Source: Candidatus Eiseniibacteriota bacterium (GTDB lineage: Bacteria; Eisenbacteria; RBG-16-71-46). From it: a stretch of 64,000 bases of DNA. Below the pieces are notes generated by a model. The model saw only the letters and a program-made list of their open reading frames with translations, was not told the DNA's origin and made no database searches. The position numbers and the translations under genes are program-made. Of the stretch, positions 17,404-64,000 are shown one piece after another (position 1 is the stretch's first letter; every line of letters begins with the position of its first letter). The stretch lies in the NCBI GenBank assembly GCA_035691845.1, contig DASSIN010000066.1, positions 9,032 to 73,031 of the forward strand. Reading direction: 5' to 3'.

Positions 17404-17431
17404 CGGACGCGCTCCGCATGGTGGACGCTGG

Positions 17432-17824
17432 CTACCGGCTCGCGACCTGCACGGCGCTGGCTTCGATCGCCTTCGTTCCGCTGCGCGTCAGCAGCTCGCC
17501 GGTCACGGCGACGGTCTTGCCGGCCATGCCCTTCAGAGAGTTGTAGGGGTCGGCGTTGTCGTGGTCGAGCGTCACGAGGTAGAGCGTGCCGTTGCTCGTG
17601 AGCAGCCCCATCGGCATGCCCTGGTTGAGACACTTGGTGGCGCACGACACGTGGTCCGCGCCGCGCGCTTCGTGCCCCAGCCAGCAGCCCATGTCCACCA
17701 CTTCGCCGGTGATGGTCTTCCGCACCACCTTTTCGCCCGGCATGTGGTGGCCTTCGTGGGCGATGGCGGGGGCGGCGAAGCCGAGAACGGCCAGGGCGGC
17801 GAACATATGGGTGATGCGGGTCAT
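17432..17824 (-). CDS. Small secreted His/Cys-containing protein (possible periplasmic metal-binding protein)
   Basis: Signal peptide MFAALAVLGFAAPAIA followed by HEGHHMPGEK; motif DMGCW..H..C...C; high GC3; co-directional 28 nt upstream of cytochrome gene. Confidence 0.55.
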   Translation of the reverse strand: MTRITHMFAALAVLGFAAPAIAHEGHHMPGEKVVRKTITGEVVDMGCWLGHEARGADHVSCATKCLNQGMPMGLLTSNGTLYLVTLDHDNADPYNSLKGMAGKTVAVTGELLTRSGTKAIEASAVQVASR

Positions 17825-21347: not shown

Positions 21348-21399
21348 GCCAGCGTGCCACGCAGCAGGATACTTTCGGCTCCGGGCGTGTAGCCGGTGG

Positions 21400-26495: not shown

Positions 26496-26594
26496 CGCGC
26501 CACTGTGCCACAGACGGGTGAGGGTCCAGAAGGACGAGGGCGTCACCGAACGGGCATGGGGGAGGCCCGACGTACGGCGCGGGCGCTGCTCAGC

Positions 26595-32641: not shown

Positions 32642-32696
32642 CGGGAGACTCTACCTCATCTCATCCCGATGTCGGCTCCGGCATGCGGGCCGCGGC

Positions 32697-47122: not shown

Positions 47123-47285
47123 GAGCGGCCTCCGGGACGGGTTGAGGCTCCATTTTACGCGGGCGCTCTGCGGCGCGAACAGCCCAATGTGGGCGGCCGC
47201 TGGGTTTTTCCGCCGGCGGGGCCGGAGGCGGTGCCGCCTTCGCCGTTCGACTTCCCGTGGCCGCTGAAGTAGAACTCGGCGCCCC

Positions 47286-48500
47286 ATGGGCCTCGAGATC
47301 GCCGCCTGCCGCACGCCCGACGAGACGATCGCCTCGATCGGGCCGGTGGCCCACTATTTCGGCATCCCGCTGCGGCCGCAGGACCACGTGCGGTTCACGC
47401 CGTTCGTCGAACCCTCGCGCGCGTTCACGGCGCGCGACGATGGTGTGGTGGTGGGCGGCTGCGCGTCGTTTCCGTTCGAGCTGACGGTGCCGGGCGGGTT
47501 CGTGCGCGCGGCGGGCGTGACCACGGTGGGCGTGCTGCCCACCCACCGCCGCCGCGGCATCCTGCGCGACCTGATGCGCGAGCAGCTCGACGACGTGCGC
47601 CGGCGCGGCGAGCCGGTGGCGGCGCTGTGGGCGTCCGAGGACACGATCTACGGGCGATTCGGCTACGGCATGGCATCGGTGTGCGCGGACATCGAGCTGC
47701 CGAAGGCCTCGGTGGCGTTCGCGCTGCCGTTCGAGCGGCGTGGAAGCTTCCGGCTGCTCGGCGAGGCCGAGGCGCTGGCCGCGTTCCCAGAAGTCTACGA
47801 CCGCGTGCGGGCGCGCCAGCCGGGCATGCTGTCACGCGTGCCCGAGTGGTGGCAGCATCGCGTGCTGGCGGATTCCGAGCACCGCCGCCAGGGTGGCGGC
47901 CACATGAATCGCGTGCTGCTCGCGCGCGACGGCCGCGCGAGCGGCTACGCGTTGTATCGCCTGTTCCAGAAGTTCGAGGCGGGCGTGACGGTCGGTCACC
48001 TGCAGGTGATCGAGGCGGTCGCCGATGGCGCCGACGCCACGCGCGAGCTGTGGCGTCACCTGCTCGACATCGACTGGGTGGCGAGCATCAAGGCGACGCT
48101 GCTGCCGCTCGATCACCCGCTGTGGTTCCTGCTCGCGCGCCCGCGCGAGGCGGGACTGCGCGTGCGCGACGGCCTGTGGATCAGGCTCGTGGACCTGCCG
48201 GCGGCGCTCGCCGCGCGCGGGCGGGGCGACGCCGCCCCCGTCGTGATCGAGGTGGCGGACGCGTTCTGTCCGTGGAACGCGGGCCGCTGGCGCATCGCGC
48301 CCTCCGGCGTCGAGCGCACCACCGCCGAGCCCGAGCTGGCGTGCGACGTCGGTACACTCGGCTCGGTCTACCTCGGGGGCTTCACGTTCCGTCGGCTGGT
48401 GCGCGCCGCGCGCGTGGCCGAGCTGCGCGCCGGCGCCGCGGAACGCGCCGACGCGCTGTTCCCGGCCGATCTCGCCCCGTGGTGTCCCGAGATCTTCTGA
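47286..48500 (+). CDS. GNAT-family N-acetyltransferase, Eis-like three-domain architecture
   Basis: 404 aa; GVLPTHRRRGILRDLMREQL acetyl-CoA binding motif; C-terminal SCP2-like region. Confidence 0.65.
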   Translation: MGLEIAACRTPDETIASIGPVAHYFGIPLRPQDHVRFTPFVEPSRAFTARDDGVVVGGCASFPFELTVPGGFVRAAGVTTVGVLPTHRRRGILRDLMREQLDDVRRRGEPVAALWASEDTIYGRFGYGMASVCADIELPKASVAFALPFERRGSFRLLGEAEALAAFPEVYDRVRARQPGMLSRVPEWWQHRVLADSEHRRQGGGHMNRVLLARDGRASGYALYRLFQKFEAGVTVGHLQVIEAVADGADATRELWRHLLDIDWVASIKATLLPLDHPLWFLLARPREAGLRVRDGLWIRLVDLPAALAARGRGDAAPVVIEVADAFCPWNAGRWRIAPSGVERTTAEPELACDVGTLGSVYLGGFTFRRLVRAARVAELRAGAAERADALFPADLAPWCPEIF

Positions 48501-48576: not shown

Positions 48577-49281
48577 TCACGCCGCGACCGTCTCGACGCG
48601 CGCCGGCGCCTCCCGCGCACCGAACACCAGCAGCCAGGTCGCGGCCACCAGCTCTCCCGGCGCGAGCGCCCGCGCGATCGGATCGATGACGGTCGCGAGC
48701 TTCATCGGGAACAGGCTCGTCACCGCCGTCGCCATGTCGCCGGCGGCCGCCAGCAGCAGCAGCACACCCAGGATCTTCGGCAGGAATCCGGAGCGAAGCA
48801 CGAGGATCCCGAACGGCACCAGCCACAGCGACCAGAACACCCACACCACGGCGAAGCCCTGGCCATGGATGCGCAGGAACAGATACGCCAGCGAGTCGAG
48901 CTGGGGCCTCGAGAACGTGGCGAGGAACGGGGGCGCGCCCACGATGACCAGCGCGGCGAGCTCGTTCATCGCGTTCAGGAACATGATCGGCACCGACATG
49001 GCGACCAGGATCGCGAGTTGCACCGCCGCGCTGCGGTTGACGGACTCGAACAGACGATAGAGCGCGAGGCCGAGGTACAGGAACACGACCTGGTGGAACA
49101 GCTCGCTGGCGATGCCGAGCCGCAGCAGCGTCTCCGAGGCCCGGATGTGCGCGGCGGTCGTGGCCGCGTCGCCGTACACGAACAACGCCTTCGGGATGAA
49201 GATCAGCCCCGGCAGCCCGGTGACGACCATCAGTGCGTACAGCAGGCCCGCGAACCGCGCTTGTTGCCTGGTGGAGCGCAT
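48577..49281 (-). CDS. DUF4386-family membrane protein
   Basis: MRSTRQQARFAGLLYALMVVTGLPGLIFIP...; GGGAGGA RBS before ATG 49281; paralog at 57436..58167; six-frame ORF to 49632 is an extension. Confidence 0.7.
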   Translation of the reverse strand: MRSTRQQARFAGLLYALMVVTGLPGLIFIPKALFVYGDAATTAAHIRASETLLRLGIASELFHQVVFLYLGLALYRLFESVNRSAAVQLAILVAMSVPIMFLNAMNELAALVIVGAPPFLATFSRPQLDSLAYLFLRIHGQGFAVVWVFWSLWLVPFGILVLRSGFLPKILGVLLLLAAAGDMATAVTSLFPMKLATVIDPIARALAPGELVAATWLLVFGAREAPARVETVAA

Positions 49282-49626
49282 GCGTCCTCCCATGGTGGAG
49301 TGGGGACCCGTGCCATTGGTTACGGGGCCGGGTGGTTGGGGGTTTCTGGTTCGCCTCCGGGCAGCCCCGGCGGCAGCGTCCGAGGGCCGACGCGTCGGGC
49401 CGTGGACGACGAACACCTTGGGCCCTGCTGGGCCGTCCGCCGCGCCCGTGCCCCCCGGCTCCGGATTGGGAGGGTTTTCATTGCCGGTGAACCGCCCGTC
49501 GGCGACGGTTCGCGTTCCGGCGCGGAGGACTCGCCCGGGCGGGCGCCCATGGTCGTGGCGGCGCCGACCACCCGACCGCGTCCACCCCGAACGCCGCATC
49601 GCGGACAATCGTTCACGGAGGATCGC

Positions 49627-50823
49627 GTGCATCGCGCCGCACGGACCGTCCTGCTGCTATCCGCCATTCACTCCCGCCTGCCCGCGGCGTCCGCGTCCGC
49701 CGTGCACGAGGTGCCATTCGAGATCGCGAGCAACAAGGCGTTCGTGCAGGTGACCGTGAACGGCTCGGCGCCGCAGTGGTTCATCCTCGATTCGGGCTGC
49801 GCCGGCGGCTCGGTGATCGCGCGCGAGTGTGCGGACCGGCTGGGAATCGCGCGCGGCCGCGCGACGGAGCGCCACCTGGGCGCCGGCAGCGGCGTGTCCG
49901 TCGGCGTGTCCACGGCGGCCGACGCGGTGCTCGGGCTCGGTGAGGACACGGTGGGCGTGGCGTCCCCGCGCGTGTTCCCGCTCGCCCACGTCGCCCGCTT
50001 CGAGGGCCGGCGCGTGGATGGGCTCGTGGGCGAGGACTTCCTGCTGCGGCACGTGGTCGAGATCGACTACGCGCATCGGCGGCTGCGGATTCGGGACCCG
50101 CGCGGCTTCACCCCGCCACGTGGAGCGACGGTGGTCCCGATCGCGCTCGAGCACGGGCTCGCGGTCGTGGGGGGCGCGATCGCGCTGCCGGGCGGCGGAT
50201 CGATCCCTTGCCGATTCGTGATCGACACCGGTGTGCGGGCCACGGTGATCCTCTACCGCCCATTCGCCATCGCCCACCATCTGCTCGATGCGCCGGGCGA
50301 CCTCGCCTCCGCTGTGGTGGGCGGCGGCGCCGGCGGCGAGACGATCGGCGACGTCGGGCGGCTGGCATGGCTCGCACTCGGTGAGGCGCGGTTCGAGCGT
50401 CCGACCGCGGTGTACTCGCGCGACACGGTCGGGGTGTTCGCGAGCGAGGATCCGGACGGCATCATCGGCGGCGAGCTGTTGCGGCGCTGCCGCGTGACGT
50501 TCGACTACCCGCACCGGCGGCTGATGCTCGAGCGCCATCGCGGTCCGGGCGCCTTCGAGTACGACATGAGCGGTTTGTTCCTGACCGCCGAGGGCGACCG
50601 CTTCGACACCGTCATGGTGTACGGGGTCACGAGCGGCACGCCGGCCGCGGAGGCGGGCGTCCGTCCCGGCGATGCGATCCTCGCCATCGATGGCGCGCGC
50701 GCGCCGGATCTCACGCTCGAGCGTGCACGCGCCATGCTGCGCACGCCCGGCGCGCATCGCCTCGAGCTCGAGCGTGGGAACGAGCGGCGCGAGATCCGGA
50801 TCGAGGCGCGCCCGCTGGTATAG
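49627..50823 (+). CDS. Secreted retropepsin-like (clan AA) aspartic protease fused to C-terminal PDZ domain
   Basis: GTG start with ACGGAGGA RBS; signal peptide VHRAARTVLLLSAIHSRLPAASASA; two DSG/DTG active-site motifs (ILDSGCAGG, VIDTGVRAT); C-terminal PDZ (GVRPGDAILAIDGA). Confidence 0.7.
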   Translation: MHRAARTVLLLSAIHSRLPAASASAVHEVPFEIASNKAFVQVTVNGSAPQWFILDSGCAGGSVIARECADRLGIARGRATERHLGAGSGVSVGVSTAADAVLGLGEDTVGVASPRVFPLAHVARFEGRRVDGLVGEDFLLRHVVEIDYAHRRLRIRDPRGFTPPRGATVVPIALEHGLAVVGGAIALPGGGSIPCRFVIDTGVRATVILYRPFAIAHHLLDAPGDLASAVVGGGAGGETIGDVGRLAWLALGEARFERPTAVYSRDTVGVFASEDPDGIIGGELLRRCRVTFDYPHRRLMLERHRGPGAFEYDMSGLFLTAEGDRFDTVMVYGVTSGTPAAEAGVRPGDAILAIDGARAPDLTLERARAMLRTPGAHRLELERGNERREIRIEARPLV

Positions 50824-50981: not shown

Positions 50982-53900
50982 TCACCGCACCCGCACGACG
51001 CGCTGCGTGATCGCCCGCGCCCCGGTCTCGAGCCGCACGAAGTAGACGCCCGCTGCGGCGGCGCGCGGCTCCCACGTGACCGCATGCGGTCCGGCGCGCC
51101 GCAGACCGTCCTCCACCACCGCGACGCGACGGCCGGCGAGATCGTAGACCGCCACGCGCACGCGGGTGTCGTTCGGCAGGGCGTAGTCGATGCGCACCAC
51201 GCCGCGCGCGGGGCTGGGACTGGCGCGCATCGCGAACGCCAGCGGCGCGGTCGTGGGCGGCGCGGCCGCGACCGGCGGCGTCACGAACTGCACGATCCCC
51301 TGCGCGGGGAACCCGCCCACCGACTGGAACCGCCCGCCGGCGAACAGGCTCGTGCCATCGAGCGCGAACGCGAACACCAGGTTGTCGGCGCCCGTGGCGA
51401 ATGCCGTCGCGTGTCCGGGACTGGCGACCGTCACCTCGCCCATGTACGCGTGCGGGGCGCCGTCCAGCGCGGTGAAGCTGCCGCCCACCTCGACGTCGGT
51501 GCCGTTCAGCAGCAGCGCGCTCACCGAGCCCGCCGCATTGGGATTCCAGGTCGACGCGGCGCCGGTGCTGGTGCTCAACGCCGCCAGCCGGTTGCGCGAC
51601 TGTCCGCCGATGGTGGTGAAGTTTCCGCCTGCGTACAGCACGCTGCCGTTCAGCAGCAGCGCGCCGATGCTGCTGTTGGGGGCCGGGTTCCAGGCCAGCA
51701 GCGCGCCGGTCGATGCGCTGACCCCGGCCAGGTCCACCACCGTGGTCGCGCCGACCTTGTTGAACACGCCGCCGAAGTACACGTTGGTGCCGTTGGTCGC
51801 GATCGCGTTGACGTTGCCGTTCACGCCTGGGTTCCAGCTCGCCAGCGCGCCGGTGGTGGTGCTGACGGCCGCGAGATGGCCGCGGGTGGTGCCATCCACG
51901 GTGGTGAACCCGCCGCCCAGGTAGAGCCGCGTGCCGCTGACCGCCAGCGCGCGCACGATGTTGTCGGTGCTGGCCGCGAACGCGGTCTTGGCGCCGGTCG
52001 CGAGATCGAATGCGGCCAGGTTGGCGTGGGCGAGCCCGCCCGCGTTGGCGAACGATCCGCCCGCGAAGACATTGGTGCCATCGGTCGCCAGCGCATTCAC
52101 GCTGCCGTCGGTGCCGGGGTTCCAGGAGGTGACCGTGCCCGAGGCCTCGTCGATCGCCGCTAGGCTCGCGCGCGGCACGCCGCCCGCGCTCGTGAACCCT
52201 CCGCCGGCCCAGATCTCGGCGCCGGTGGTCACCGCGGCCGCGATCACGTTCACGGTGTTGTTGACGTTCGGGTCCCACGCCTGCGCGTTGCCGCTCGCCA
52301 CGTCGAGCGCGGCGAGGTTGTGGCGCGGCTGGCCGCCGATCGCCGTGAACGCTCCGCCGACGTACAGCGTCGCGCCGCGCGACAGCAGGCACGTGGCATT
52401 GCCGGTGGGATTCGGGTTCCAGCTCGTGGCCGCGCCGCTGGCGGCGTCGAGCGCCGCCAGGCTCGCGCGCGCCTGGCCACCGATGTTGGAGAAGTAGCCT
52501 GCGGCGTACACCGTCGAGCCCGCCGGCTCGATCGCGACCACGGCGTTGTCGGCGTTGGGATTCCAGCTCGTGACGGCGCCCGATCCGAGATCGATCACGG
52601 CGATGTGGCCGCGCGCCTGCCCGGCGATCTCCGTGAACCCGCCGCCCGCGTACAGTCTGCCGTTGTCGATCTTCGTCGTGTACACGAAGTCGTTGGCCTC
52701 GGCCGCCCATGGCCGTGCGAAGCCGGTTTGGGTGTCGAGGATCGCGAGCCGGGTGCGCGCGCCGCCGCCCGCGTGCAGGAACTGTCCTCCGGCCACGAGC
52801 CCGCCGCCGCCGAACGCGAGGCTGAACACGGCGTCGTCCGCGCCCGGGTTCCAGTCCAGCGGCTCGCCGGAGGTGGCGTCCAGCGCCGCCAGGTTGCTGC
52901 GCAGCACGCCCGCCACGCTCGTGAACGCGCCGCCGATGAACACGCGCTGGCCCTCGATCGCGATCGCGAACACCTCGCCGTCCGGGCACGGGTTCCACGG
53001 GGCCAGCGACTGGTATGCGTACACGTGCGCGAGATTGCGGCGCGGCACGCCGTTCACGTGCGTGAAGAAGCCCCCCAGGTACCAGCCGCCGTTGCCATCC
53101 GAGGCCATCGCGTCGATCCGGCCGTCCACGCGCGGCAGCCAGTTGGCCTGCCCGGTCACGGGATCGAACGGCACGGCGCTGCCGGTGGCCGGTCCGATCT
53201 GCGAGAACGATCCGCCCAGGTACAGCGTGCCGTTGACCGGCAGCAGCGCGGACACCTGCGAATCGGTAACGTACAGGTCCCTGCGCACGGTCTTCCACTG
53301 GTCGTCGTCCAGGATCGTCCCGGTGCCGCCGGCGCGCGCGAGGAACGCGCCGGACGGATTCGACAGCGTGACGGCGAACGTCTCGTCGCTCTCGCTCTTC
53401 GCGTCGCCGCGCACCGCGACCGAAACGGTGTGCGACAGCTCGCCCGGCGCGAACACGACCGTGCCGCCGGCCGCGACGTAATCGCTGTCGGCCACGGTGG
53501 CAACCCCGTCGGCGGTGTTCCAGTCCACGGTCACGGTGCTGGTGGAGGGCGCGGTCAACGTGACGGTGAACGTGGCGGGGCTCGTGCCCGCATCGCCCTC
53601 GGGCACCGCGCGATCGCCGATCGTGAGCGAAGGCGTCGCGCTGCACGCGCCGAGGTTGGGCGCAGGGTATGGCCCGAGCGTACGGGTCCCCGCGACGTAG
53701 CAGCGTCCCGGCCCCAACACCACCGCCGCACCCCCGCCCGACTGCGGAACCCAGGCCGTGGGCGTTCCGGTGGTCGCGTCGAGCGATGCCAGACCGGAAC
53801 GCGGCTGTCCGCCGACGTTCTGAAAGTTGCCCGCGGCGGTGAGCAGGTTGCCGTCGATCGCCATGCCGTGCACCGCGCCGTCGAATCCGGGATCGAACGC

Positions 53901-55775
53901 GAGCACCGCGCCGGTGGCGTAATTGAGCGCGGCGAAGTAGTTGCGCGATTGCCCGCCGACCGTGCTCATGAAGCCGCCGATGTAGATCCCGTTCGGTCCG
54001 GCGACCATGCACGTGGCCGGAAACGTCGACGTCTGCGTGAACGTCGTGGCATTGCCGGTGGAGGTGTCGTATGCGGCGAAGGCTCCGTTCTGGGTCAACG
54101 TGCCCTGGATGGACTCCGAGACGTAGAGCCAGCCGCCAAGCACCATGCTGGTGACCGGGCCCTGTGGAATCGGCGGCGACCACGTGCTCACCGTGGCCGA
54201 AAACGCGTCCACGCGCGCGATCCCATCGTGGAATTGATTCCCCACGCCGCTGAAGGCGCCGCCCACGTACAGCCATCCTCCCGCGCACAACAACGCGTAC
54301 ACCGGGGCGTCCGTGTCGGCGCTCCACGCGGCCACCGCGCCGGTGGCCGCGTCCACGGCGGCGAGATTGGCACGCGCCTGGACGCCCACCTGCGTGAACG
54401 TGCCGCCCAGGAACACGCGCGTGCCCTGCACCGCGATCGCGGTCACGTTCGTGCCGGGGACGCCGCCGGTGACGTTCGGATCGAACGCCGTTGCCGCGCC
54501 GGTGGCCAGATCGAACGCCGCGGCGTTGTTGCGCGATACCACGTTCACGCTCGTGAATTGGCCGCCCACGAACATCGCGCCGCCGCTCACCGCGATCGTC
54601 TTGGCGAACAGCATCGGGTTCGGGTTCCACGCCGCGGCGAGTCCGGTCGAGCCGTCCACGGCGGCCATCATGCTGCGATACTGGCCGCCGATGATGCTGA
54701 ACGGACCCGAGACGTAGACCGTGGACCCGCTGGCCGTCACCAGATTGGGCTTCCCATCGGGGTTCGGATTCCAGCCCATCGCCGTGCCGAGCACGGGGTC
54801 GAGCGCGGCGAGTCCGTTGCGCGGGGCGGAAGCGATCGTGGCGAAGTCGCCCGCGACGTACAGCGCGCCGTTGGCCAGCGCCATCGAATACACGGCCGCG
54901 TTCGGCGCCGGCACCCACGGCAGGGGCGCCCCCGTTCCGGCATCGAACGACGTCAGGAACGAGCGCGTCGGCATCGTGGTCGTGCTGTAGTTGCCGGCGA
55001 GGAACACGCTCGAGCCCGACACGAGGATCGAAAAGATGCCGGGCGAGATCGGCGGGGCCCAGGCGGCCACCGTGCCGGAGGCGGCGTCGATGCGGGCGAC
55101 CCCGGGGTGCGTCGCGCCTCCCACCGTGTTGAAGTAGCCTCCGACGTAGATGTTGGTCCCCGCCACCACGCAGCAGTTGACCGTGTTGTCGAGCCCGGGA
55201 TTCCAGGCCGTCGCCGCGCCGGTGCTCGCGTCCACCGCCCCCAGGAAATGCCGCGCGGCGCCGCCGAGCGAGTCGAACTGCCCTCCCACGAACAGCGAAG
55301 CGCCGGCGAGCGCCAGCGTCTGGACCACGCCGTCGGAACCCGGGTCCCACGGAGCGACCGCGCCGGAGCCGAGCACGTGCGCGAGATTGCGGTGCGCGAC
55401 TCCGCCCACGTGGCCGAATTGCCCGCCCACGAACCAGCCTCCCGCGCCGTCCGGAACCACGGCGTTGACGATGCCATCGATGCGCAGCCGCGGGCCGGTC
55501 AGCAGGCCCGTCGCGGGGTCTAGCAAGACTCCGCCTCCGGTGTTGGGACCCACGTGCGTGAACGCGCCCCCGACGTAGAGGGTGTTCGCGTCGCGCGCGA
55601 TCGTCGACACGAACCCGTCGGTGACCCACAACGTGGTGTCCACGATCGCCTGGGCCCGGGCCCGCATCGGCAGGGCGAGACCGGTGATCGCGAGCAGGAC
55701 GGTGGCGAGGATTTCCGCGCGCCGGCGGGCCCGGGGCGCATGGACAAAGCGGTCGGGGGTCATGTGCGGCCTCAC
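50982..55775 (-). CDS. Giant secreted delta-60/kelch-like tandem-repeat protein (~1597 aa) with central Calx-beta-like domain and T9SS-type C-terminal sorting domain
   Basis: Signal peptide ILATVLLAITGLALPMRARAQA; >25 repeats of G.F..VGG..R..LAA.D..TG....W.P..; Calx-beta-like segment TFTVTLTAPSTSTVTVDW..DYVAAGGTVVFAPGE; C-terminal RASPSPARGVVRIDYALP..VAVYDLAGRRVAV...AGVYFVRLETGARAITQRVVRVR. Overlapping ORF 50839..55824 is an Arg-rich alternative frame. Confidence 0.85.
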   Translation of the reverse strand: MRPHMTPDRFVHAPRARRRAEILATVLLAITGLALPMRARAQAIVDTTLWVTDGFVSTIARDANTLYVGGAFTHVGPNTGGGVLLDPATGLLTGPRLRIDGIVNAVVPDGAGGWFVGGQFGHVGGVAHRNLAHVLGSGAVAPWDPGSDGVVQTLALAGASLFVGGQFDSLGGAARHFLGAVDASTGAATAWNPGLDNTVNCCVVAGTNIYVGGYFNTVGGATHPGVARIDAASGTVAAWAPPISPGIFSILVSGSSVFLAGNYSTTTMPTRSFLTSFDAGTGAPLPWVPAPNAAVYSMALANGALYVAGDFATIASAPRNGLAALDPVLGTAMGWNPNPDGKPNLVTASGSTVYVSGPFSIIGGQYRSMMAAVDGSTGLAAAWNPNPMLFAKTIAVSGGAMFVGGQFTSVNVVSRNNAAAFDLATGAATAFDPNVTGGVPGTNVTAIAVQGTRVFLGGTFTQVGVQARANLAAVDAATGAVAAWSADTDAPVYALLCAGGWLYVGGAFSGVGNQFHDGIARVDAFSATVSTWSPPIPQGPVTSMVLGGWLYVSESIQGTLTQNGAFAAYDTSTGNATTFTQTSTFPATCMVAGPNGIYIGGFMSTVGGQSRNYFAALNYATGAVLAFDPGFDGAVHGMAIDGNLLTAAGNFQNVGGQPRSGLASLDATTGTPTAWVPQSGGGAAVVLGPGRCYVAGTRTLGPYPAPNLGACSATPSLTIGDRAVPEGDAGTSPATFTVTLTAPSTSTVTVDWNTADGVATVADSDYVAAGGTVVFAPGELSHTVSVAVRGDAKSESDETFAVTLSNPSGAFLARAGGTGTILDDDQWKTVRRDLYVTDSQVSALLPVNGTLYLGGSFSQIGPATGSAVPFDPVTGQANWLPRVDGRIDAMASDGNGGWYLGGFFTHVNGVPRRNLAHVYAYQSLAPWNPCPDGEVFAIAIEGQRVFIGGAFTSVAGVLRSNLAALDATSGEPLDWNPGADDAVFSLAFGGGGLVAGGQFLHAGGGARTRLAILDTQTGFARPWAAEANDFVYTTKIDNGRLYAGGGFTEIAGQARGHIAVIDLGSGAVTSWNPNADNAVVAIEPAGSTVYAAGYFSNIGGQARASLAALDAASGAATSWNPNPTGNATCLLSRGATLYVGGAFTAIGGQPRHNLAALDVASGNAQAWDPNVNNTVNVIAAAVTTGAEIWAGGGFTSAGGVPRASLAAIDEASGTVTSWNPGTDGSVNALATDGTNVFAGGSFANAGGLAHANLAAFDLATGAKTAFAASTDNIVRALAVSGTRLYLGGGFTTVDGTTRGHLAAVSTTTGALASWNPGVNGNVNAIATNGTNVYFGGVFNKVGATTVVDLAGVSASTGALLAWNPAPNSSIGALLLNGSVLYAGGNFTTIGGQSRNRLAALSTSTGAASTWNPNAAGSVSALLLNGTDVEVGGSFTALDGAPHAYMGEVTVASPGHATAFATGADNLVFAFALDGTSLFAGGRFQSVGGFPAQGIVQFVTPPVAAAPPTTAPLAFAMRASPSPARGVVRIDYALPNDTRVRVAVYDLAGRRVAVVEDGLRRAGPHAVTWEPRAAAAGVYFVRLETGARAITQRVVRVR

Positions 55776-55860
55776 GGGGGACGCGTGCCGGGGGGTGCGG
55801 AGGGGCCGGCATCAAGGCTAGCACCGCCTGGGCGCGATCGGCGCGGGAATTTTTGCGGTG

Positions 55861-56772
55861 CTACCGGCGATGCGGCCCCGCGGAGTGCCCGGCCAGCGTC
55901 GCATAGGCAGCGTCCATGGGCGCGTCGCCGTTCGGCCAGTCGTGCTCCTTGCCCGGCGTGTCGGGCCGCGGGTGCGACAGCACGAATGCGGCGACGTCGT
56001 AAGCCTGCTGATCGGTCAACGTGCCGGGCCGGTCGCGCGGCATGTTCCAGCGGATGAACGCCGCGGCGGTGCGGACCCGCGACATGCCGGCGCCGATTGC
56101 GAACGACCCCGGCCCCCATAGGGGCGGGATCCCGACGCCGCCTTGCCCGGCGGTCCCATGGCAGCGCACGCAGTTCTGCGCGAACACCCGCGCCCCCGCA
56201 CCGGCATCGCCCGTGCGCGGCGCCAGCGTGCGGTAGCCGAGCCACGGCGCGCGCCGGCCCTGTGGCATGCCGCTCGACAGGAACGCCATGTACGAGACGA
56301 TGTCGATCATGTCCCGGCCGTTGGGATCGAGCGGGACGCCGTTCAGGCTGCGGCGCATGCACTCGTTCACGCGATCCTCGATCGTGATCACCCGCCCGGC
56401 GCGCGCGTTGTACTGCGGGAAGGTGGCGAACGTGCCCACCCACGCGCTGGACCCGGCCCGCGTGCCGGCGTCGAGGTGGCAGTTCGTGCAGGCGAGCCGG
56501 CTCGAGACGTGGGCGGGGAGCGAGTCGCGCGTGGCGAGCACGAGCGCGCGGCCGCGGCGAATCGAGGCGCCGAGCGCCCCGCCCGGGATGCGCGCGCTGT
56601 CGGGCACGGCGAACCCGCGCGGGGCGGCGACCGAATCGGGGAGCAGCGCCAGGCTCGGGTCCGCGGGCGGGGCATGCCGTCCGCATCCGGCCGCGCACAG
56701 CAGCGATGCGATCGGCAGGGCGAGCAGCGCCACGGCCGTCAGCGACGCGAACCGCGGGAATGAGATGGCCAT
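55861..56772 (-). CDS. Diheme c-type cytochrome, TsdA/thiosulfate-dehydrogenase-like (lipoprotein-type signal)
   Basis: Signal peptide MAISFPRFASLTAVALLALPIASLLCAAGC; two CxxCH (CTNCH, CVRCH) about 100 aa apart, ~300 aa total. Confidence 0.6.
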   Translation of the reverse strand: MAISFPRFASLTAVALLALPIASLLCAAGCGRHAPPADPSLALLPDSVAAPRGFAVPDSARIPGGALGASIRRGRALVLATRDSLPAHVSSRLACTNCHLDAGTRAGSSAWVGTFATFPQYNARAGRVITIEDRVNECMRRSLNGVPLDPNGRDMIDIVSYMAFLSSGMPQGRRAPWLGYRTLAPRTGDAGAGARVFAQNCVRCHGTAGQGGVGIPPLWGPGSFAIGAGMSRVRTAAAFIRWNMPRDRPGTLTDQQAYDVAAFVLSHPRPDTPGKEHDWPNGDAPMDAAYATLAGHSAGPHRR

Positions 56773-56853
56773 CCGAGGAAAACGAGGGAGTCGGGACCGG
56801 GCTGGAATTCGAACCGCGGCGCGGCGTTCGGCCGCGCCGCGGTCGAACACGGG

Positions 56854-57285
56854 CTACGGGCGCAGCGTCTCCCAGCCCTCCGAGTACTTGGTGGTGATGT
56901 ACCACATCGCGCCCTTGACCGGCGTCACGGTGGGCAGCAGTTCGGATTCCTTGACGCCGAGCAGGTCCATCGCGTGGTGGCAGACGTGGAACACCACGCC
57001 GCGTTTGGTCAGGCTCGCGATGTCGTCCGCGAACTTGGTCGTGGGCCGGGTGGTGACGGCGAACGTGGCCGGCCCGTAGGTGATGACCTCGAGCTGCACG
57101 TTGTCCTGGCCGACGTCGTCGAGCAGGTTGGTCAGGTGCTTGGTCATCACCCACTGTCCCATCGAGTCGCCCTCGGTCCACTGAAACAGGATGTGCTTCT
57201 TCTTCGGCACGGCGCTGTGGGCGGACGGGATGGAGACGGACGCGGAGAACAGCAGCACGGCGGACAGCAGCAACAGGCGACGCAT
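56854..57285 (-). CDS. Secreted DsrE/DsrF-like (sulfur-relay fold) protein
   Basis: Signal peptide MRRLLLLSAVLLFSASVSIPSAHSA; KKHILFQWTEGDS..., GVVFHVCHHAMDLLGV Cys-containing motif reminiscent of DsrE/TusD family; ATG 57285. Confidence 0.45.
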   Translation of the reverse strand: MRRLLLLSAVLLFSASVSIPSAHSAVPKKKHILFQWTEGDSMGQWVMTKHLTNLLDDVGQDNVQLEVITYGPATFAVTTRPTTKFADDIASLTKRGVVFHVCHHAMDLLGVKESELLPTVTPVKGAMWYITTKYSEGWETLRP

Positions 57286-57435
57286 GTTGGTGGGACCTCC
57301 AGGGGGAAAAGGCCGGCGCATCTGCGCGGACCCGCGCAGTCGACGCGGCATCCTAGTGCGCCCGGCCGGCCGGAACAACGGCGATCTGCGGATCCGCGTA
57401 GGATCGAGCATCGCATGAAGATGTGACCGCACGGG

Positions 57436-58167
57436 TCACACGGCGCCGCGCGCCGCCCGCGCCTCCCACCCGTGCGCGTCCACGCCCCTGACGATCAGCC
57501 ACAGGCACAGGGACGACTCGCCCACGAGCGCGGGCAGCAGGATGTAGGGATATAGCCGGTTGGCGAGCGGCGGCGACAGCAGCAGGGCGAAGCTGTCCGT
57601 GAGATAGCAGGCGCCGGCGAGCTGCATCAGCACGCCGATCGCCTTCGGCAGGAAGCCGGAGCTGAAGATCAGGCGCCCGACGATCAGGCAGAAGCAGCCG
57701 AAGAAGATCAGCGCGACGCCGAACCCGTAATCGTGCGAGCGGATCGCCAGCATGGTCATGACGTCGAGCTGCGGCGACGGGAACGCCTGCAGGTACCCGG
57801 CCCGGCCCAGCGGGAACAGCGCCTCGACCAGCGGCATCGTGGTGGCCGCCTCGACCGCGATCGAGACCACGTTGAACACCACCGCGAGCAGCGCCAGATC
57901 GCGGCTCACGGGCCGCAGCAGCACGTACAGGATCATCAGCAGCACGATGGCGCAGATCAGCAGCACGAACTCGGAGGCGAGCCCCACCCGCCACAGCGGC
58001 TCCATCGCCCGGATCCGGGCCGCGGTCCCGGCCGGATCGCCGGGGACCACGAGCCTGCCGCGCACGACCGCCTCGCCGAACAGCCCGAGCACGATGATGA
58101 CGAGGTACAGCACGCCGCCGATGCGGGCGAGCGTGCGCGGGGACGTGCGGGCCGGGTGGGTTTGCAG
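57436..58167 (-). CDS. DUF4386-family membrane protein paralog, start codon uncertain (possible CTG start or 5' decay)
   Basis: Aligns over full length with 48577..49281 (…LARIGGVLYLVIIVLGLFGEAVV… vs …FAGLLYALMVVTGLPGLIFIP…), but the first in-frame ATG (58005) would remove the first TM helix; upstream in-frame region has only CTG/ATC. Confidence 0.5.
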   Translation of the reverse strand: MQTHPARTSPRTLARIGGVLYLVIIVLGLFGEAVVRGRLVVPGDPAGTAARIRAMEPLWRVGLASEFVLLICAIVLLMILYVLLRPVSRDLALLAVVFNVVSIAVEAATTMPLVEALFPLGRAGYLQAFPSPQLDVMTMLAIRSHDYGFGVALIFFGCFCLIVGRLIFSSGFLPKAIGVLMQLAGACYLTDSFALLLSPPLANRLYPYILLPALVGESSLCLWLIVRGVDAHGWEARAARGAV

Positions 58168-58184: not shown

Positions 58185-60578
58185 TCAGCCGGAGATCGGC
58201 CGCAGCTCGCTCGCCGCCGGCAGGCCGGATTCGATCTTCACCTCGCGGAACAGCGCGTGGACGGAGGGATCGAGCATCGGCGCCTCGAGCGGCCACACCA
58301 GTGTGGCGTCCCGGCGGCGCGGCGCGAAGCGATCGAGATCCAGGATCGGGTGCAGCGCCGGCGTCAGGCGCGCGAGCGTCGGCGACAGCGCGTACAGCAG
58401 GCGGACGTTCACGATCTCGACCGCGACGTCGAGCTCTCCGATCCGCACCGCGGCCTCGGCCATCATCAGCAGGCCGATCGATCCGATGCCAGTCCGCTCG
58501 CGCAGCTCGTGCACGATCCGGCGCGCCTCCTCCGCGTGCCCGGCGCGCGCGGCCAGCAACGCGTCGATGGCGCGCAGGTCGTCGGGGCGGGCGTGGTCGG
58601 CCGCGCCTTCGCGGCGCGAGCGCTCGGCGGCGGGAAGGTCGCCCCGTCGCAGCGCGAGCCAGGCGCGATCCAGGTGCACTCCCGTCACGTAGAACGGGTT
58701 GTCGGTCGCGCGGCGCACGCGATCGAGCAGCGCCAGCGCCTCGTCCTCGCGGCGGGTGCCCTGCGCGATCAGGATCACCCAGAACATCGCGAAGCAGTCC
58801 AGGGGATCGATGTCGAGCGCACGCCGCGCGTAACGCTCGCCGGCCGCCAGATCGGCGTCCTCCACCTCGAGCACGACCAGATTGAGCAACGCGGGCGAGA
58901 AGCGCGCGTCGGATTCGAGCGCGCGGAGCAGCGCCGCCCGGGTGCCGGCGATGTCGCCCATGAAGTGCAGGCTGAGCGCCAGCGCCTTGTGACCCTCGGG
59001 CAAGCGCGGATTCAGCGACAGCGCGTGGCGTGCGGCCTCGAGCCCGAGCCGGGTGAGCTCGTCGATGCTCGTGGCCCGGCTCCACTGGCACAGCTGTCCG
59101 TAGCAGTCGGCGATCCCCGCCCACGCCAGCGCGTAGCTCGGATCCACCTGGGTCGCCGCGCGGAACTTATCCAGCGCCTCGTTCAAGGACGCCTCGGTGT
59201 ACTGCCCGTACAGCTCGCGACCCTTGAGGTACAGGTCGTAGGCGCGCACGTCGCGCGGGCGATCCTCGGCCATCCTGGCCACGTCGGCCGGCGACAGCGC
59301 CACGCGCAGGGCTTCGGCGATCGAGGACGCGATCTCCCCCTGCACCGCGAACACGTCGTCCATGGTGCGGTCGTAGCGCTCGGCCCACAGCTGGAAGCCG
59401 TCGCCGGCGTTCACGAGCTGCGCGGTGATGCGCACGCGCCCGCCGGCGCGTCGCACGCTGCCCTCCAGCACCGAACCCACGCCCAGCTCCGCCGCGACCC
59501 GGGGCAGATCGGCGGGCTGACCGCGATAGCGCTGGACGGCATTGCGCGACGCGACGCGCAGCCCCTTGATCTTGGACAGATCGGTGAGGATGTCCTCGGT
59601 GATGCCGGAGCAGAAGTAGTCGCTGTCGGGATCGTTGCCGATGTTCTCGAAGTACAGCACCGCCAGCGACGGCTTCGCGGGCGCGGCGGCCGCGACGACG
59701 CCGGACGGCGACGACAGCTCGAGCTCGAGCGCGTGCAGCTCGCGCCCGATGTCGCCCACGTCGCGCGGGCGATCCTCGGCGGTCTTGGTGAGACAGCGCC
59801 GCAGCACGTCGCGCAGCCGCGGCGGCGTGGTCGGCGGCAGCGCGTTCCAGTCCGGCTCGCGCTCCAGGATCCTGGCGATGGTGTCGGACACGGTCTCCCC
59901 GGCGAACACCGGGCGGGCGGTCAGGCACTCGAACAGGATGCAGCCGAACGCCCACACGTCGGAGCGCCGATCCAGCTGCTTCCCGCGCGCCTGCTCGGGG
60001 CTCATGTAGGCGGCGGTGCCGAGGATGATGCCGGCGCCGGTGGCCGACAGCGCCATCGTCGGCGAGGCCGACAGGTCGGAGGACGAGCCCGCGGCCTCGA
60101 TCCCCCCCTTCGCCAGCCCGAAGTCCAGCACCTTGACGCGACCCGAGGGCATCAGCATCACGTTCCCGGGCTTCAGATCGCGGTGCACGATGTCGCGCTC
60201 GTGCGCCGCCGAGATCGCGGCCGCCATCTGCGCGCCCACCTCGAGCGCATCCTGCAGGGGCAGCGGGCCGCGCGCGAGGCGCTGCGCCAGCGTCTCGCCT
60301 GGGACCAGCTCCATAACCAGGAACGGCGCGCCGTCGGCGTCCTCGAGCCCGTAGAGGATCGCGATGCCGGGATGGTTGAGCGACGCCAGCAGGCGGGCCT
60401 CGCGCTCGAAGCGCGCGAGCCGCTCCGGGTGCTGCGCGAACGCCGCCGGCAGGCCCTTGATCGCCACCTCGCGCCCGAGCCGCGTGTCGCGCGCGCGGTA
60501 CACCTCGCCCATTCCCCCGGCGCCGAGCGGCGCGAGAATCTCGTACGGCCCGAGCAGGGTTCCCGAGTCGAGCGGCAT
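58185..60578 (-). CDS. Ser/Thr protein kinase with C-terminal TolB-N-like / TPR-repeat region (cytoplasmic-type sensor)
   Basis: [49 protein letters not shown]; C-terminal PSLAVLYFENIGNDPDSDYFCSGITEDI (TolB-N-like) followed by TPR-like helical repeats. Confidence 0.85.
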   Translation of the reverse strand: MPLDSGTLLGPYEILAPLGAGGMGEVYRARDTRLGREVAIKGLPAAFAQHPERLARFEREARLLASLNHPGIAILYGLEDADGAPFLVMELVPGETLAQRLARGPLPLQDALEVGAQMAAAISAAHERDIVHRDLKPGNVMLMPSGRVKVLDFGLAKGGIEAAGSSSDLSASPTMALSATGAGIILGTAAYMSPEQARGKQLDRRSDVWAFGCILFECLTARPVFAGETVSDTIARILEREPDWNALPPTTPPRLRDVLRRCLTKTAEDRPRDVGDIGRELHALELELSSPSGVVAAAAPAKPSLAVLYFENIGNDPDSDYFCSGITEDILTDLSKIKGLRVASRNAVQRYRGQPADLPRVAAELGVGSVLEGSVRRAGGRVRITAQLVNAGDGFQLWAERYDRTMDDVFAVQGEIASSIAEALRVALSPADVARMAEDRPRDVRAYDLYLKGRELYGQYTEASLNEALDKFRAATQVDPSYALAWAGIADCYGQLCQWSRATSIDELTRLGLEAARHALSLNPRLPEGHKALALSLHFMGDIAGTRAALLRALESDARFSPALLNLVVLEVEDADLAAGERYARRALDIDPLDCFAMFWVILIAQGTRREDEALALLDRVRRATDNPFYVTGVHLDRAWLALRRGDLPAAERSRREGAADHARPDDLRAIDALLAARAGHAEEARRIVHELRERTGIGSIGLLMMAEAAVRIGELDVAVEIVNVRLLYALSPTLARLTPALHPILDLDRFAPRRRDATLVWPLEAPMLDPSVHALFREVKIESGLPAASELRPISG

Positions 60579-60690
60579 CGGTCGAATGTACCACGGACGT
60601 TGCGGGCGGCAGCCCGCGCCTGGGCCGTCCGTGACTGCCATTGTGGCGGCCGGCGGGACGCCCGAGCGCCAGGTGCTACCCTCCGACCCC

Positions 60691-61640: not shown

Positions 61641-62462
61641 CTAGTCGATGATCTGCGTTCCGCCCCCGTCGCCACTGCCCGCGCTGAAGTCGATCACGCC
61701 GAGGCTCGTGGTCGAGCCCGCGGTGACGATCACGCCCGGGAAGCTGCGATCGCCGGCGGCGCCGTGCACCACCACGTCGTAGGTCCCGGCCGGCAGCACG
61801 CTCGCCACGAACACGCCGCTCGCGCCCGGCACCACGCTCGTGATCGTCGTGCCGTTCCGCAGCACGTCCACGCCGCTGACCCAGCCCGGCGGCGCCACCG
61901 TGCCCGAGATCGCCCCGGCATCGGCCGCGGCGAGCCCGCGCAGCACGGGACGCAGGAACCAGCTGCCGCCTCCGTTCTGCTGCAGCGACTGGCCGGCGTC
62001 GAAGTCGAGCTGCAGCGCCAGCACGCCGCCCGCGGGCACCGAGAAGCTGCCCTGCAGCTTGAGTCCCGACTCCGCTCCGCTCGGCACGGTGAGCGGGCTC
62101 GTCACGCCGTCCACGGTGATCGTGTTGTCGTTGCCGAGCACGAGCCGCAGGCCGTCGTAGCTGCCCGATGACACCGAGCCGTTGGCCAGCGCGAGGAACG
62201 CCCCGTTCTGGAGCGAGAGCAGGTCCACGGCCTGGGGCGTCGCGTTCAGCACGTCCCAGCCGAGGTTGTCGGCCGCGCCGGCATGGTGGGCCAGCACCGA
62301 CACGACGTCCACGTTCACGGCCTGCACGGCGGCGGGCGCGTCGGTCATCAGCACCCTGAACTGCCCCACCGACGCGCTCGGGGATGTCGGCGCGGGCGTC
62401 TTGCCGCCGCATCCGTACAGCGCCGCGATGGCGATGACGGCAGGAATGAGCAGCTTGCGCAT
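61641..62462 (-). CDS. DUF4382-domain lipoprotein
   Basis: MRKLLIPAVIAIAALYGCGG lipoprotein signal; GGAGGA RBS; FRVLMTDAP...VNVDVVSV pattern typical of DUF4382. Confidence 0.7.
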   Translation of the reverse strand: MRKLLIPAVIAIAALYGCGGKTPAPTSPSASVGQFRVLMTDAPAAVQAVNVDVVSVLAHHAGAADNLGWDVLNATPQAVDLLSLQNGAFLALANGSVSSGSYDGLRLVLGNDNTITVDGVTSPLTVPSGAESGLKLQGSFSVPAGGVLALQLDFDAGQSLQQNGGGSWFLRPVLRGLAAADAGAISGTVAPPGWVSGVDVLRNGTTITSVVPGASGVFVASVLPAGTYDVVVHGAAGDRSFPGVIVTAGSTTSLGVIDFSAGSGDGGGTQIID

Positions 62463-62770
62463 GAGATCCTCCAGCGGGTTTCGGCTGCGAACTGATCCGC
62501 CCGGGGGATTCGCAAGCTCCATTCCAACGCGCAACGCCGTGCGCCGCCTCACCCGTTGAGATTCCGCGGCTTGCACGACGCACGCCGGGGCGGCCCCGGC
62601 CGTGCGGAATCGAACGGGCCGGGCGGGGCATGGTCCAAAGGCACCAGTCGCGACGGTCCCTGTGGCCACTTTCCGCCCGCCGTTGGGGGGCGCAGGATCC
62701 GGAGCGTGTCATCCCACCGGCCCGAATCGCGGGCCGGGATCGCGGACCGTCCCCCACGAGAGGCCATCCC

Positions 62771-64000
62771 ATGCATCGCCCGACCAGGGCCCACGGGGCG
62801 TCTGCACGCGCGCTCGGGCATCGAGCGGGCGCACGCGCGCCGCAGCTCGCGACGTTCGCGGCGCTCGCGCTCGCGCTGACGTGTGGAAATGTGACGCGCG
62901 CCCACGCGCAACAGATCCCGCTCGATCCCAAGAGCATTCCGCAGTTCGTCGAGCCGTTGCCGATACCCTCGGTGTTGAACGGCACGACGACGACGCCGGG
63001 CTCGCCGCTCGTCGTCACCATGAGCGAATTCCAGCAGAAGCTGCTGCCGGATGCGTTCTACGCCGGACTCGCGGCGCCGTACGACGCCGGCAGTTACGTG
63101 TGGGGCTACAACCACAGCTATCCGGGCCCCACGATCGTCGCCACGCGCAACGTGCCGACGCACGTGCGGTACGTGAACGATCTCTACAACCCGGCGGGCG
63201 GGCCGCTGTACCTGCAGGCCACGGTGCCGGTGGATCAGACCATCCACTGGGCGGATCCGCTCGGCACGGGCATGAGCTTCGAGCGCTACCTGGGTCCGGT
63301 GCCGGCGGTCGTGCATCTGCACGGCGGCGAGGTGCCATCCGCGTTCGACGGTGGACCCGATGCGTGGTGGACGCCGGGGTTCGCGTACCACGGGCCGGGT
63401 TTCGTGACCGACACCTACACCTATCCCAACGCCCAGCAGGGCGCCTCGATGTTCTATCACGATCACGCGCTCGGCATGACGCGGCTGAACGTCTACTCCG
63501 GCCTGGCCGGGTTCTACATCCTGCTCGACCCCTCGATCGAGCCGGCCCAGCTGCCCGGCGGAGCGGCCGACACGCCGCAGGACCAGTACGGGCATTCGTA
63601 CCGGATCGGGCTCGCGCTGCAGGACCGTGTGTTCGACACGAACGGCCAGCTCCTGTTCCCGAGCGACAGCGACAACCCGGACGTGCATCCCTACTGGACG
63701 CCCGAATTCTTCGGCGACGTCATGCTCGTGAACGGAAGATCGTGGCCATACCTGCGGGTGGAGCCGCGGCGCTATCGCTTCGAGTTCCTGGACGGCTCCA
63801 ACGCGCGGTTCTACGAGCTGCGGTTGATGAACCAGGCCACCGGGCGGCCGGGCCCGGCGTTCTGGCAGACGGGCGGCGACCAGGGGCTGCTGGACGCGGC
63901 GGTGAAGCTGAACGATCCGGTCGTGTCCAAGTCGCCGCGGCTGCTGTTCGCGCCGGGCGAGCGCTGCGACGTGGTGATCGACTTCTCCGGGTTCGCCGGG
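62771..64000 (+). CDS. Multicopper oxidase (CotA/bilirubin-oxidase-like), 3'-truncated by window end
   Basis: Open frame from ATG 62771 to 64000 (410 codons, no stop; not listed in the ORF track); Tat/Sec-like leader; copper-ligand motifs HWADP, HLHGGEV, MFYHDHALGMT. Confidence 0.8.
   Translation, partial: MHRPTRAHGASARALGHRAGARAPQLATFAALALALTCGNVTRAHAQQIPLDPKSIPQFVEPLPIPSVLNGTTTTPGSPLVVTMSEFQQKLLPDAFYAGLAAPYDAGSYVWGYNHSYPGPTIVATRNVPTHVRYVNDLYNPAGGPLYLQATVPVDQTIHWADPLGTGMSFERYLGPVPAVVHLHGGEVPSAFDGGPDAWWTPGFAYHGPGFVTDTYTYPNAQQGASMFYHDHALGMTRLNVYSGLAGFYILLDPSIEPAQLPGGAADTPQDQYGHSYRIGLALQDRVFDTNGQLLFPSDSDNPDVHPYWTPEFFGDVMLVNGRSWPYLRVEPRRYRFEFLDGSNARFYELRLMNQATGRPGPAFWQTGGDQGLLDAAVKLNDPVVSKSPRLLFAPGERCDVVIDFSGFAG

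Follow-up and report, generated by a model that had tools for sequence, protein, structure and literature searches.

Why should a secreted protein of the DsrE fold be encoded beside a thiosulfate dehydrogenase? The question is raised by two neighbouring genes in a 64-kb stretch of DNA (GC content about 71%) from a Candidatus Eiseniibacteriota bacterium (contig DASSIN010000066.1), which as a whole is referred to here as the window. An earlier note had proposed, from the sequence alone, that a TsdA-like dihaem cytochrome c and a signal-peptide-bearing DsrE-like protein form a periplasmic sulfur-oxidation mini-module, possibly a persulfide relay. This study revealed a TsdA system in which an exported protein of the DsrE fold is strictly linked to the enzyme; the system is restricted to uncultured bacteria of soil and sediment that form a narrow group. 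The interpretation given in the note is partly supported: it was right on the identities of the proteins and on the module, it overstated the unusualness of the export, and the function it suggested is unproven. A persulfide relay is a role that we infer for the small protein. The chances appear even that this protein is a dedicated periplasmic, cysteine-based carrier of thiosulfonate or persulfide that would work with TsdA.

TsdA is the main bacterial catalyst of the interconversion of thiosulfate and tetrathionate. Two partners of it are known, the cytochrome TsdB and a lipoprotein of Wolinella, TsdC, and a strictly linked DsrE-fold protein that is secreted would add a partner of a third kind. 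To our knowledge, all characterised DsrE, TusD and DsrE3 proteins act in the cytoplasm, and the pairing with TsdA would provide the first functional context for a large and unstudied class of exported DsrE-like proteins. If thiosulfonate or persulfide is carried, sulfur-relay chemistry extends to the periplasm, and a true carrier would offer a handle on thiosulfate use by heterotrophic soil bacteria of poorly known phyla.

Organization of the gene pair

Both genes lie on the minus strand, as do all features of the pair given below. The dsrE-like gene, referred to as type A (57285 to 56854), encodes 143 amino acids including the signal peptide and ends in TAG. It comes first in the direction of transcription and is followed, after a spacer of 81 nucleotides (nt), by tsdA (56772 to 55861; 303 amino acids). 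Re-reading of the open reading frames (ORFs) bore out the coordinates, motifs and gap reported earlier. The order reported, cytochrome first and DsrE-like protein after it, has to be reversed: the dsrE-like gene is 5' of tsdA and lies "downstream" only in plus-strand coordinates.

The start of the dsrE-like gene at the ATG at 57285 is preceded by GGAGG at a distance of 8–12 nt. A longer ORF of 192 amino acids from an upstream GTG is disfavoured by this start and by the lengths of the homologues (141–146 amino acids). The tsdA product is 100% identical to a 303-residue NCBI protein from a metagenome-assembled genome (MAG) of Candidatus Eisenbacteria, where it is annotated merely as "c-type cytochrome", and this identity supports the ATG at 56772 as the tsdA start. 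Together with the alignment of homologues, it also speaks against the GTG at 56850 (329 amino acids). In the GTG-56850 frame, the hairpin region of the spacer described below reads FDRGAAERRAAV; since this resembles the N-terminal n-region TRDGARSAGAV of some TsdA homologues, it is conceivable, if less likely, that tsdA has a longer signal peptide that starts upstream of the ATG at 56772.

The TsdA cytochrome

The tsdA product scores 53.2 bits with the SoxA/TsdA domain PF21342, for which the cut-off is 27, and a class-I cytochrome c domain (PF13442/PF00034) comes after it. Its best matches in the PDB by phmmer are the structures of Allochromatium vinosum TsdA (4WQC, 4V2K and 4WQ7; E = 5e-52 to 3e-51 over residues 54–271). 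The next match is the TsdB-TsdA fusion 5LO9, while SoxA chains and generic cytochromes follow at E = 1e-10 or worse. With the catalytic residues also kept, the likeness to TsdA that had been noted turns out to be true membership of TsdA rather than of the generic c4/c5 cytochromes.

The attachment motif of the catalytic haem 1 is C95-T-N-C98-H99 (CTNCH; 56476 to 56490) and that of the electron-transfer haem 2 is C201-V-R-C204-H205 (CVRCH; 56158 to 56172). Between them lies the active-site stretch R124...R134-V-N-E-C138-M-R-R-S142 (56347 to 56403), in which Arg124, Arg134, Cys138 and Ser142 match Arg109, Arg119, Cys123 and Ser127 of A. vinosum TsdA in the phmmer alignment. In the A. vinosum enzyme, Cys123 of the precursor (Cys96 of the mature protein) provides the sixth ligand to the catalytic haem 1, and Arg109, Arg119 and Ser127 bind thiosulfate; the arginine pair does not vary across TsdA and SoxA, and the serine is invariant in TsdA and absent from SoxA (PMC4423706). 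By this correspondence, Cys138 is probably the sixth ligand of haem 1. The distal ligand of haem 2 is assigned by alignment to the methionine of Asn243-Met244 (56041 to 56046, within RWNMP), as Met244 aligns with Met209 of A. vinosum and Met255 of Campylobacter jejuni TsdA. This methionine is the conserved haem-2 ligand, preceded by Lys208 in A. vinosum and occurring as Asn254-Met255 in C. jejuni (PMC5146829). Asn243 replaces the A. vinosum lysine, like in C. jejuni TsdA. The haem motifs and the catalytic and ligand residues are all invariant in an alignment of ten TsdA sequences, seven with a DsrE-like partner and three without. A model built with AlphaFold2 (AF2) from a ten-sequence alignment was unusable, its mean predicted local distance difference test (pLDDT) score being 39.7.

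Residues 1–30 (56683 to 56772) read as an export signal with a possible lipobox. The description of the cytochrome as lipoprotein-type holds in so far as A27-A28-G29-C30 is a plausible lipobox; its position –3 is not canonical, and the feature is not found in all homologues, a V-A-G-C lipobox being present in those of L004 and L010 and not in those of L003 and L006. The status of a lipoprotein is therefore only plausible. On these sequence features, the tsdA product is predicted to be a bona fide dihaem cytochrome c thiosulfate dehydrogenase/tetrathionate reductase. Whether thiosulfate oxidation or tetrathionate reduction is the direction in vivo cannot be read from the sequence of TsdA.

Another ORF of about 297 amino acids (16594–17487, minus strand), in which two CxxCH motifs occur and one cytochrome c domain can be recognised, was observed about 40 kb from tsdA. 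Given that no tsdB is adjacent to tsdA, it is conceivable that this cytochrome serves TsdA as an electron partner; nothing links the two.

The small exported protein

A match to the PF02635 (DsrE) hidden Markov model had been suggested as a check of the small protein. The score is 21.6 bits (E = 2.6e-4), just below the cut-off of 22.7, and PF13686 gives 20.9 bits against 25; none of the NCBIfam models matched. The assignment to DsrE is supported by the fold and by phmmer, and a precomputed PF02635 match exists for many close homologues. A phmmer search with the single sequence finds MTH1491 (PDB 1L1S; E = 1e-8). The E value falls to 1e-11 with a 25-sequence profile, which recovers ST0148 as well. 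The AF2 model has a pLDDT of about 97 over the mature domain, and its Foldseek matches are 1L1S (template modelling (TM) score 0.94, root-mean-square deviation 1.2 A) and ST0148 (2PD2; TM 0.89), with further matches to the Sulfolobus proteins DsrE3A/DsrE2B (SSO1125/1126), YchN, DsrEFH and TusBCD. According to this modelled structure the small protein has the DsrE fold and belongs to the MTH1491/COG1416 branch. The earlier note had named two outcomes that would speak against it, the absence of a DsrE fold here and a generic c4/c5 identity of the cytochrome; both were checked, and neither was observed.

Export of the protein, as predicted earlier, is well supported at the sequence level. Residues 1–24 (MRRLLLLSAVLLFSASVSIPSAHS; 57214 to 57285) read as a Sec-type signal peptide, with MRR, a hydrophobic core and then AHS|A, predicted cleavage being after AHS (AHS|AV). 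The same n/h/c architecture ending in A-H-A|A was found in 25 of the 25 aligned homologues, and homology to the cytoplasmic archaeal MTH1491 begins only at residue 29–32.

The mature protein has a single cysteine, Cys102 (codon at 56980 to 56982), within the motif FHVCHHAMD (56965–56991); CxxCH occurs nowhere in the 143 residues. In the AF2 model, Cys102 is placed where strand beta-3 ends and the following helix begins. This residue is invariant both in the 25-sequence alignment and among representatives of the wider family (146/146), and it aligns with the cysteines of MTH1491, ST0148 and the Syntrophomonas DsrE protein Swol_2425. From its place in the topology, rather than from a residue-level superposition, Cys102 appears to be the counterpart of the active-site Cys78 of DsrE/TusD. 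The C-terminus reads ...EGWETLRP.

Conservation of the pairing

Related loci were obtained from contigs with close homologues, from a scan of 185,579 species with one genome each, and from a metagenome scan. The species scan yielded seven loci (six MAGs; Eisenbacteria/Gemmatimonadales or unclassified) and the metagenome scan 18. A locus was taken as informative if it held enough downstream sequence for the next gene to be seen. In all 24 informative loci, which come from Eisenbacteria and Gemmatimonadales MAGs and from soil and sediment metagenomes, tsdA is the very next gene after type A and has the same orientation, and the two-gene module that had been proposed is thereby borne out. With this adjacency in 24/24 loci, its occurrence is far beyond chance. 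The genes flanking the pair vary among loci. Since the gene calls overlap by 4 nt in L015/L016 and abut through a TGATG stop-start in L006/L009, a single operon is suggested, with translational coupling in some loci.

The type-A clade is tiny, comprising three clusters at 50% identity below E = 1e-30. A literature search on TsdA with DsrE, or on periplasmic DsrE-like proteins with thiosulfate, found no description of the pairing within an incomplete coverage of the literature, and it appears, as far as found, to be undescribed. The closest that came up is one sentence on Methylovirgula thiovorans, whose sox operon is said to hold a gene for a periplasmic DsrE-like sulfurtransferase (PMC9371685).

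Some of the related loci showed features of their own. In one of the 24, on a 412-kb long-read metagenome contig (L002:6536-7290), tsdA is split over three frames and was missed by the gene caller of the source; either an assembly error or a pseudogene would account for this break. Tandem AhpC/Redoxin genes lie near the pair in L001 and L003, and a gene for a sulfite-oxidase-type molybdoenzyme lies near it in L003 (L003:8945-9850); neither is found near the pair in the window.

The intercistronic hairpin

Between the two genes a GC-rich hairpin is predicted (56807 to 56848), with 17 pairs, one single-base bulge, a perfect run of 13 pairs and a loop of 5 nt. It begins 5 nt past the dsrE-like stop codon and is not followed by a U-tract. 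For the 84 nt of stop codon plus spacer the folding energy is –42 kcal/mol, with z = –3.9 relative to dinucleotide shuffles. Hairpins of differing sequence were found at the same place in most related loci (L001–L004, L006–L010, L018, L021, L023, L024, L026, L027 and L033, besides the window). In 11 of 23 loci the stem is perfect over 9 bp or more, as against 2.5% of random 100-nt background windows; in several others, long but imperfect stems follow the dsrE-like stop. In some loci the hairpin overlaps the first tsdA codons, which encode a conserved R-D-G-A...A-G-A-V. The hairpin could serve to stabilise the mRNA or act as a partial terminator, or it could simply result from a constraint on the coding sequence; in the first two cases it may favour the small protein over TsdA. 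A scan for consensus promoters and terminators from 55600 to 57700 found nothing.

The type-B paralogue and the wider exported family

It was also observed that some clusters encode a second exported DsrE-like paralogue (type B), with the motif FKVCQVALKNN and about 25% identity to type A. Type B occurs in about ten pair clusters (L004–L006, L008, L015–L017, L019, L021 and L022; e.g. L006:1462-1890). It lies upstream on the same strand in L005 and L019, upstream and divergent in L004 and L017, and downstream of tsdA in L006, L008, L015, L016, L021 and L022. Because type B stays in the cluster although its position and strand vary, its linkage has been kept through rearrangement, which argues for a functional connection under selection rather than for inherited gene order. 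It is absent from the 64-kb window, and in one MAG with a type-A/TsdA pair it is encoded on a separate contig (L023 and L036).

Type B is not confined to such clusters. It has 1801 matches and is often found alone or beside other c-type cytochromes (L011–L014 and L035–L037), and the idea that type B is always linked to TsdA was rejected. The MTH1491-like family as a whole comprises 686 clusters. Within the best 150 representative clusters, a hydrophobic N-terminal extension was seen in 114 of the 121 members of at least 130 amino acids, and the archaeal-type members of 111–121 amino acids are without a hydrophobic N-terminus. Exported DsrE-like proteins are thus common in sequence databases but uncharacterised. 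The claim that an exported DsrE-like protein is atypical stands when the comparison is with characterised DsrE/TusD; in sequence space it does not, exported MTH1491-like proteins being common there.

This spread bears on the possibility that the small protein is independent of TsdA, being a general periplasmic thiol protein that buffers, detoxifies or senses reactive sulfur or tetrathionate and is merely co-regulated. The widespread type-B relative, often solitary, in unrelated contexts or beside other cytochromes, is what would be expected of such a protein, and the hairpin between the genes could end transcription. Type A itself, however, is always found with TsdA in the 24 loci and forms a clade of just three clusters, and the start/stop overlaps in some loci suggest translational coupling, so that independence from TsdA is considered rather unlikely.

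TsdAs without the partner

Not every TsdA of these phyla carries the partner. Homologues 54–62% identical to the window TsdA, one of them from a Gemmatimonadaceae genome, have no DsrE-like gene within 4 kb, and the notion of a partner universal among the TsdAs of these phyla was rejected accordingly. In the ten-sequence alignment, the seven partner-linked sequences differ from the three others at three places: around Cys138 (residues 137–139), which reads E-C-L/M with the partner and G/D-C-F without; two residues before Met244 (residue 242), with Trp against H/Y; and near the substrate pocket (residue 225), with SFA against SFN. These differences could reflect co-adaptation or simply phylogeny, which confounds a comparison of seven sequences with three.

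Such differences lying near Cys138, near Met244 and at SFA/SFN would also suit an accessory or modulator, which might tune the activity or direction of TsdA, dock it to a redox partner or to the membrane, or repair adducts of Cys138. The strict pairing would fit such a role, and so would the lack of the partner beside closely related TsdAs. TsdB and TsdC are already known as accessories of TsdA, the lipoprotein TsdC being described as tuning Wolinella TsdA; the active-site cysteine of TsdA and SoxA is moreover prone to stable adducts (PMC4423706). Against this, the small protein carries an invariant reactive-site cysteine in the fold of a sulfurtransferase, which suits covalent sulfur chemistry (a repair role would, however, draw on the cysteine as well); not being a lipoprotein, it provides no anchor; and the differences between the TsdA groups suffer from the small and phylogenetically confounded sample mentioned above. 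An accessory role is regarded as unlikely, though as the likeliest of the alternatives to a carrier.

A possible carrier function

A carrier function of the small protein, rated above at even chances, would make the pair a two-gene periplasmic module for thiosulfate and tetrathionate. The thiolate of Cys102 would take up a thiosulfonate (-S-SO3-) or sulfane group, and loading might proceed by either of two routes. In the first, Cys102 would attack the tetrathionate made by TsdA, as cytoplasmic DsrE3A does; in the second, it would undergo thiol-disulfide exchange with a Cys138-S-thiosulfonate intermediate of TsdA. TsdA turnover proceeds via a Cys-S-thiosulfonate on the haem ligand, and the related SoxAX loads thiosulfate onto the carrier cysteine of SoxYZ (PMC4423706). 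The oxidised sulfur would stay bound to protein for a further acceptor and not be freed as reactive tetrathionate. That acceptor could be the type-B paralogue where present in the genome. The flow would be reversed when TsdA reduces tetrathionate, and the hairpin after the first gene would give the carrier in excess over the enzyme.

Several observations weigh against this carrier. The partner is an add-on of one TsdA subclade, and it is unnecessary for core catalysis because TsdAs of 54–62% identity do without it. The hairpin could be a terminator, in which case the two genes would be transcribed separately in this genome. MTH1491 and ST0148, the nearest relatives with a solved structure, are proteins of unknown function, and no gene for SoxB, TetH, a sulfite oxidase or Sqr is present in the 64-kb window. 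Finally, type A reads H-V-C-H-H-A-M-D around the cysteine compared with a family consensus of A-A-C-E-N-T-M-K/R; it thus loses a cationic residue to which an anionic thiosulfonate might be held, and gains three histidines, and this His-rich motif could mean a different chemistry, for example metal binding.

Metal binding leads to a further possibility, namely that type A has been re-purposed for metal or cofactor binding through H100, C102, H103, H104, Met47, Met106 and Met127, for instance in copper handling or cytochrome maturation. The histidines and methionines that replace the family consensus around the cysteine are specific to type A, and sets of Cys, His and Met are typical of periplasmic copper sites. 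H103, however, is not fully conserved, and the small protein has no match to any known metal-binding family. Metal-handling genes are not linked to the pair in the related loci examined, and the multicopper-oxidase-like ORF of the window is about 5 kb off, on the other strand and with three genes between. The linkage, besides, is specifically to TsdA, which needs haem only. Re-purposing of this kind is judged very improbable.

By analogy with SoxAX-SoxYZ, the pair might go further and constitute a minimal carrier system, in which TsdA would couple thiosulfate onto Cys102 or pass on the Cys138-thiosulfonate, with type B as a second carrier. This more specific proposal is doubtful and is put forward as a distinctly unlikely one. 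If true, it would make the pair the first DsrE-type sulfur relay outside the cytoplasm, and uncultured soil phyla that are widespread (Eisenbacteria and Gemmatimonadota) would have a new route for using thiosulfate.

Genomic context in the window

The other genes around the pair are unrelated to it. Upstream, the gene of a DUF4386 membrane protein (57436–58122, minus strand) is 150 nt away from the dsrE-like gene; with a paralogue at 48577–49656 (minus strand) it flanks the region, and such a neighbour was absent from the gene tables examined for related loci. A Ser/Thr kinase gene follows, two genes upstream of the dsrE-like gene. Long kinases of this type with TPR or PD40 beta-propeller C-terminal regions are encoded at 58185–60641, 23811–26594 and 29897–32650, all on the minus strand. 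The downstream neighbour of tsdA (50982–55775, minus strand) encodes a secreted beta-propeller/Calx-beta protein of 1597 amino acids with a C-terminal sorting domain of type-IX secretion. Two more large secreted repeat proteins are encoded on the same strand, an FG-GAP protein of 1225 amino acids (43676–47353) and an Ig/FlgD-Ig protein of 980 amino acids (18501–21443); all three are typical of the lineage and unrelated to the TsdA pair. At 62465–64000 (plus strand), an ORF with a weak match to a multicopper-oxidase N-terminal domain runs off the end of the window, and upstream of it, on the opposite strand, lies a gene for a DUF4382 lipoprotein (61641–62450).

The window holds no second copy of the DsrE-like gene or of tsdA. 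The earlier suggestion to look for sox genes was followed up, and no sox, dsr, sqr or sulfite-oxidase gene was found anywhere in the 64 kb; tusA, tusE, dsrC and dsrF/dsrH are likewise absent from the window.

Comparison with known systems

Like the TsdAs of A. vinosum and C. jejuni, the window TsdA is predicted to be an exported dihaem cytochrome c of two domains, the N-terminal one SoxA-like, with a His/Cys-ligated haem 1. It differs from them in its possible A-A-G-C30 lipid anchor and in the lack of an adjacent tsdB, and its subclade differs in the exported DsrE-like gene that always precedes tsdA and in the changes beside Cys138 and Met244. TsdB and TsdC are described as small exported proteins encoded beside tsdA that support or alter TsdA, as proposed for the window protein. 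TsdB, however, is a dihaem cytochrome, while the small protein has no CxxCH. TsdC is set apart by its description as a unique Wolinella lipoprotein, the window protein having a type-I signal peptide and no lipobox.

MTH1491 (1L1S) and ST0148 (2PD2), both of the COG1416 type, share with the window protein the fold, the cysteine at the end of beta-3 and a C-terminal EGW. MTH1491 and ST0148 are archaeal proteins of about 110 amino acids, without a signal peptide and presumably cytoplasmic, whereas the window protein has a Sec signal, a His-rich Cys motif and the link to tsdA. DsrE3A/TusA of Metallosphaera cuprina and the DsrEFH and TusBCD complexes likewise combine the DsrE fold with a reactive cysteine in a structurally equivalent place. 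With tetrathionate, which TsdA-type enzymes produce, DsrE3A forms a Cys-S-thiosulfonate that is then handed on. These proteins are cytoplasmic and hetero-oligomeric and work with TusA, DsrC or Hdr-like enzymes, whereas the window protein is exported; it is 12–17% identical to them (12–13% to DsrE/TusD), and no TusA, DsrF or DsrH gene is linked here. Its signal peptide and the absence of partner-subunit genes from the window place it outside the DsrEFH/TusBCD type.

A parallel in location is MHY1_00068 of Methylovirgula thiovorans HY1. This DsrE-like protein is mentioned only in passing: it is exported, its gene lies among those for periplasmic thiosulfate oxidation, and it is proposed to hand on sulfur (PMC9371685). 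It is uncharacterised and linked to soxYZAB, not to tsdA.

In the SoxAX-SoxYZ system, too, a cytochrome of the SoxA family with Cys-ligated haem is encoded beside a small exported protein with one reactive cysteine (PMC4423706). SoxY has a fold of its own with its cysteine on a C-terminal GGCGG swinging arm, whereas the putative carrier of the window has the DsrE fold, an internal cysteine and no match to a Sox Pfam family. SoxX, SoxZ, SoxB and SoxCD are not encoded in the window, and the window cytochrome is distinguished from that of the Sox system by the TsdA-specific Ser142 and its dihaem architecture.

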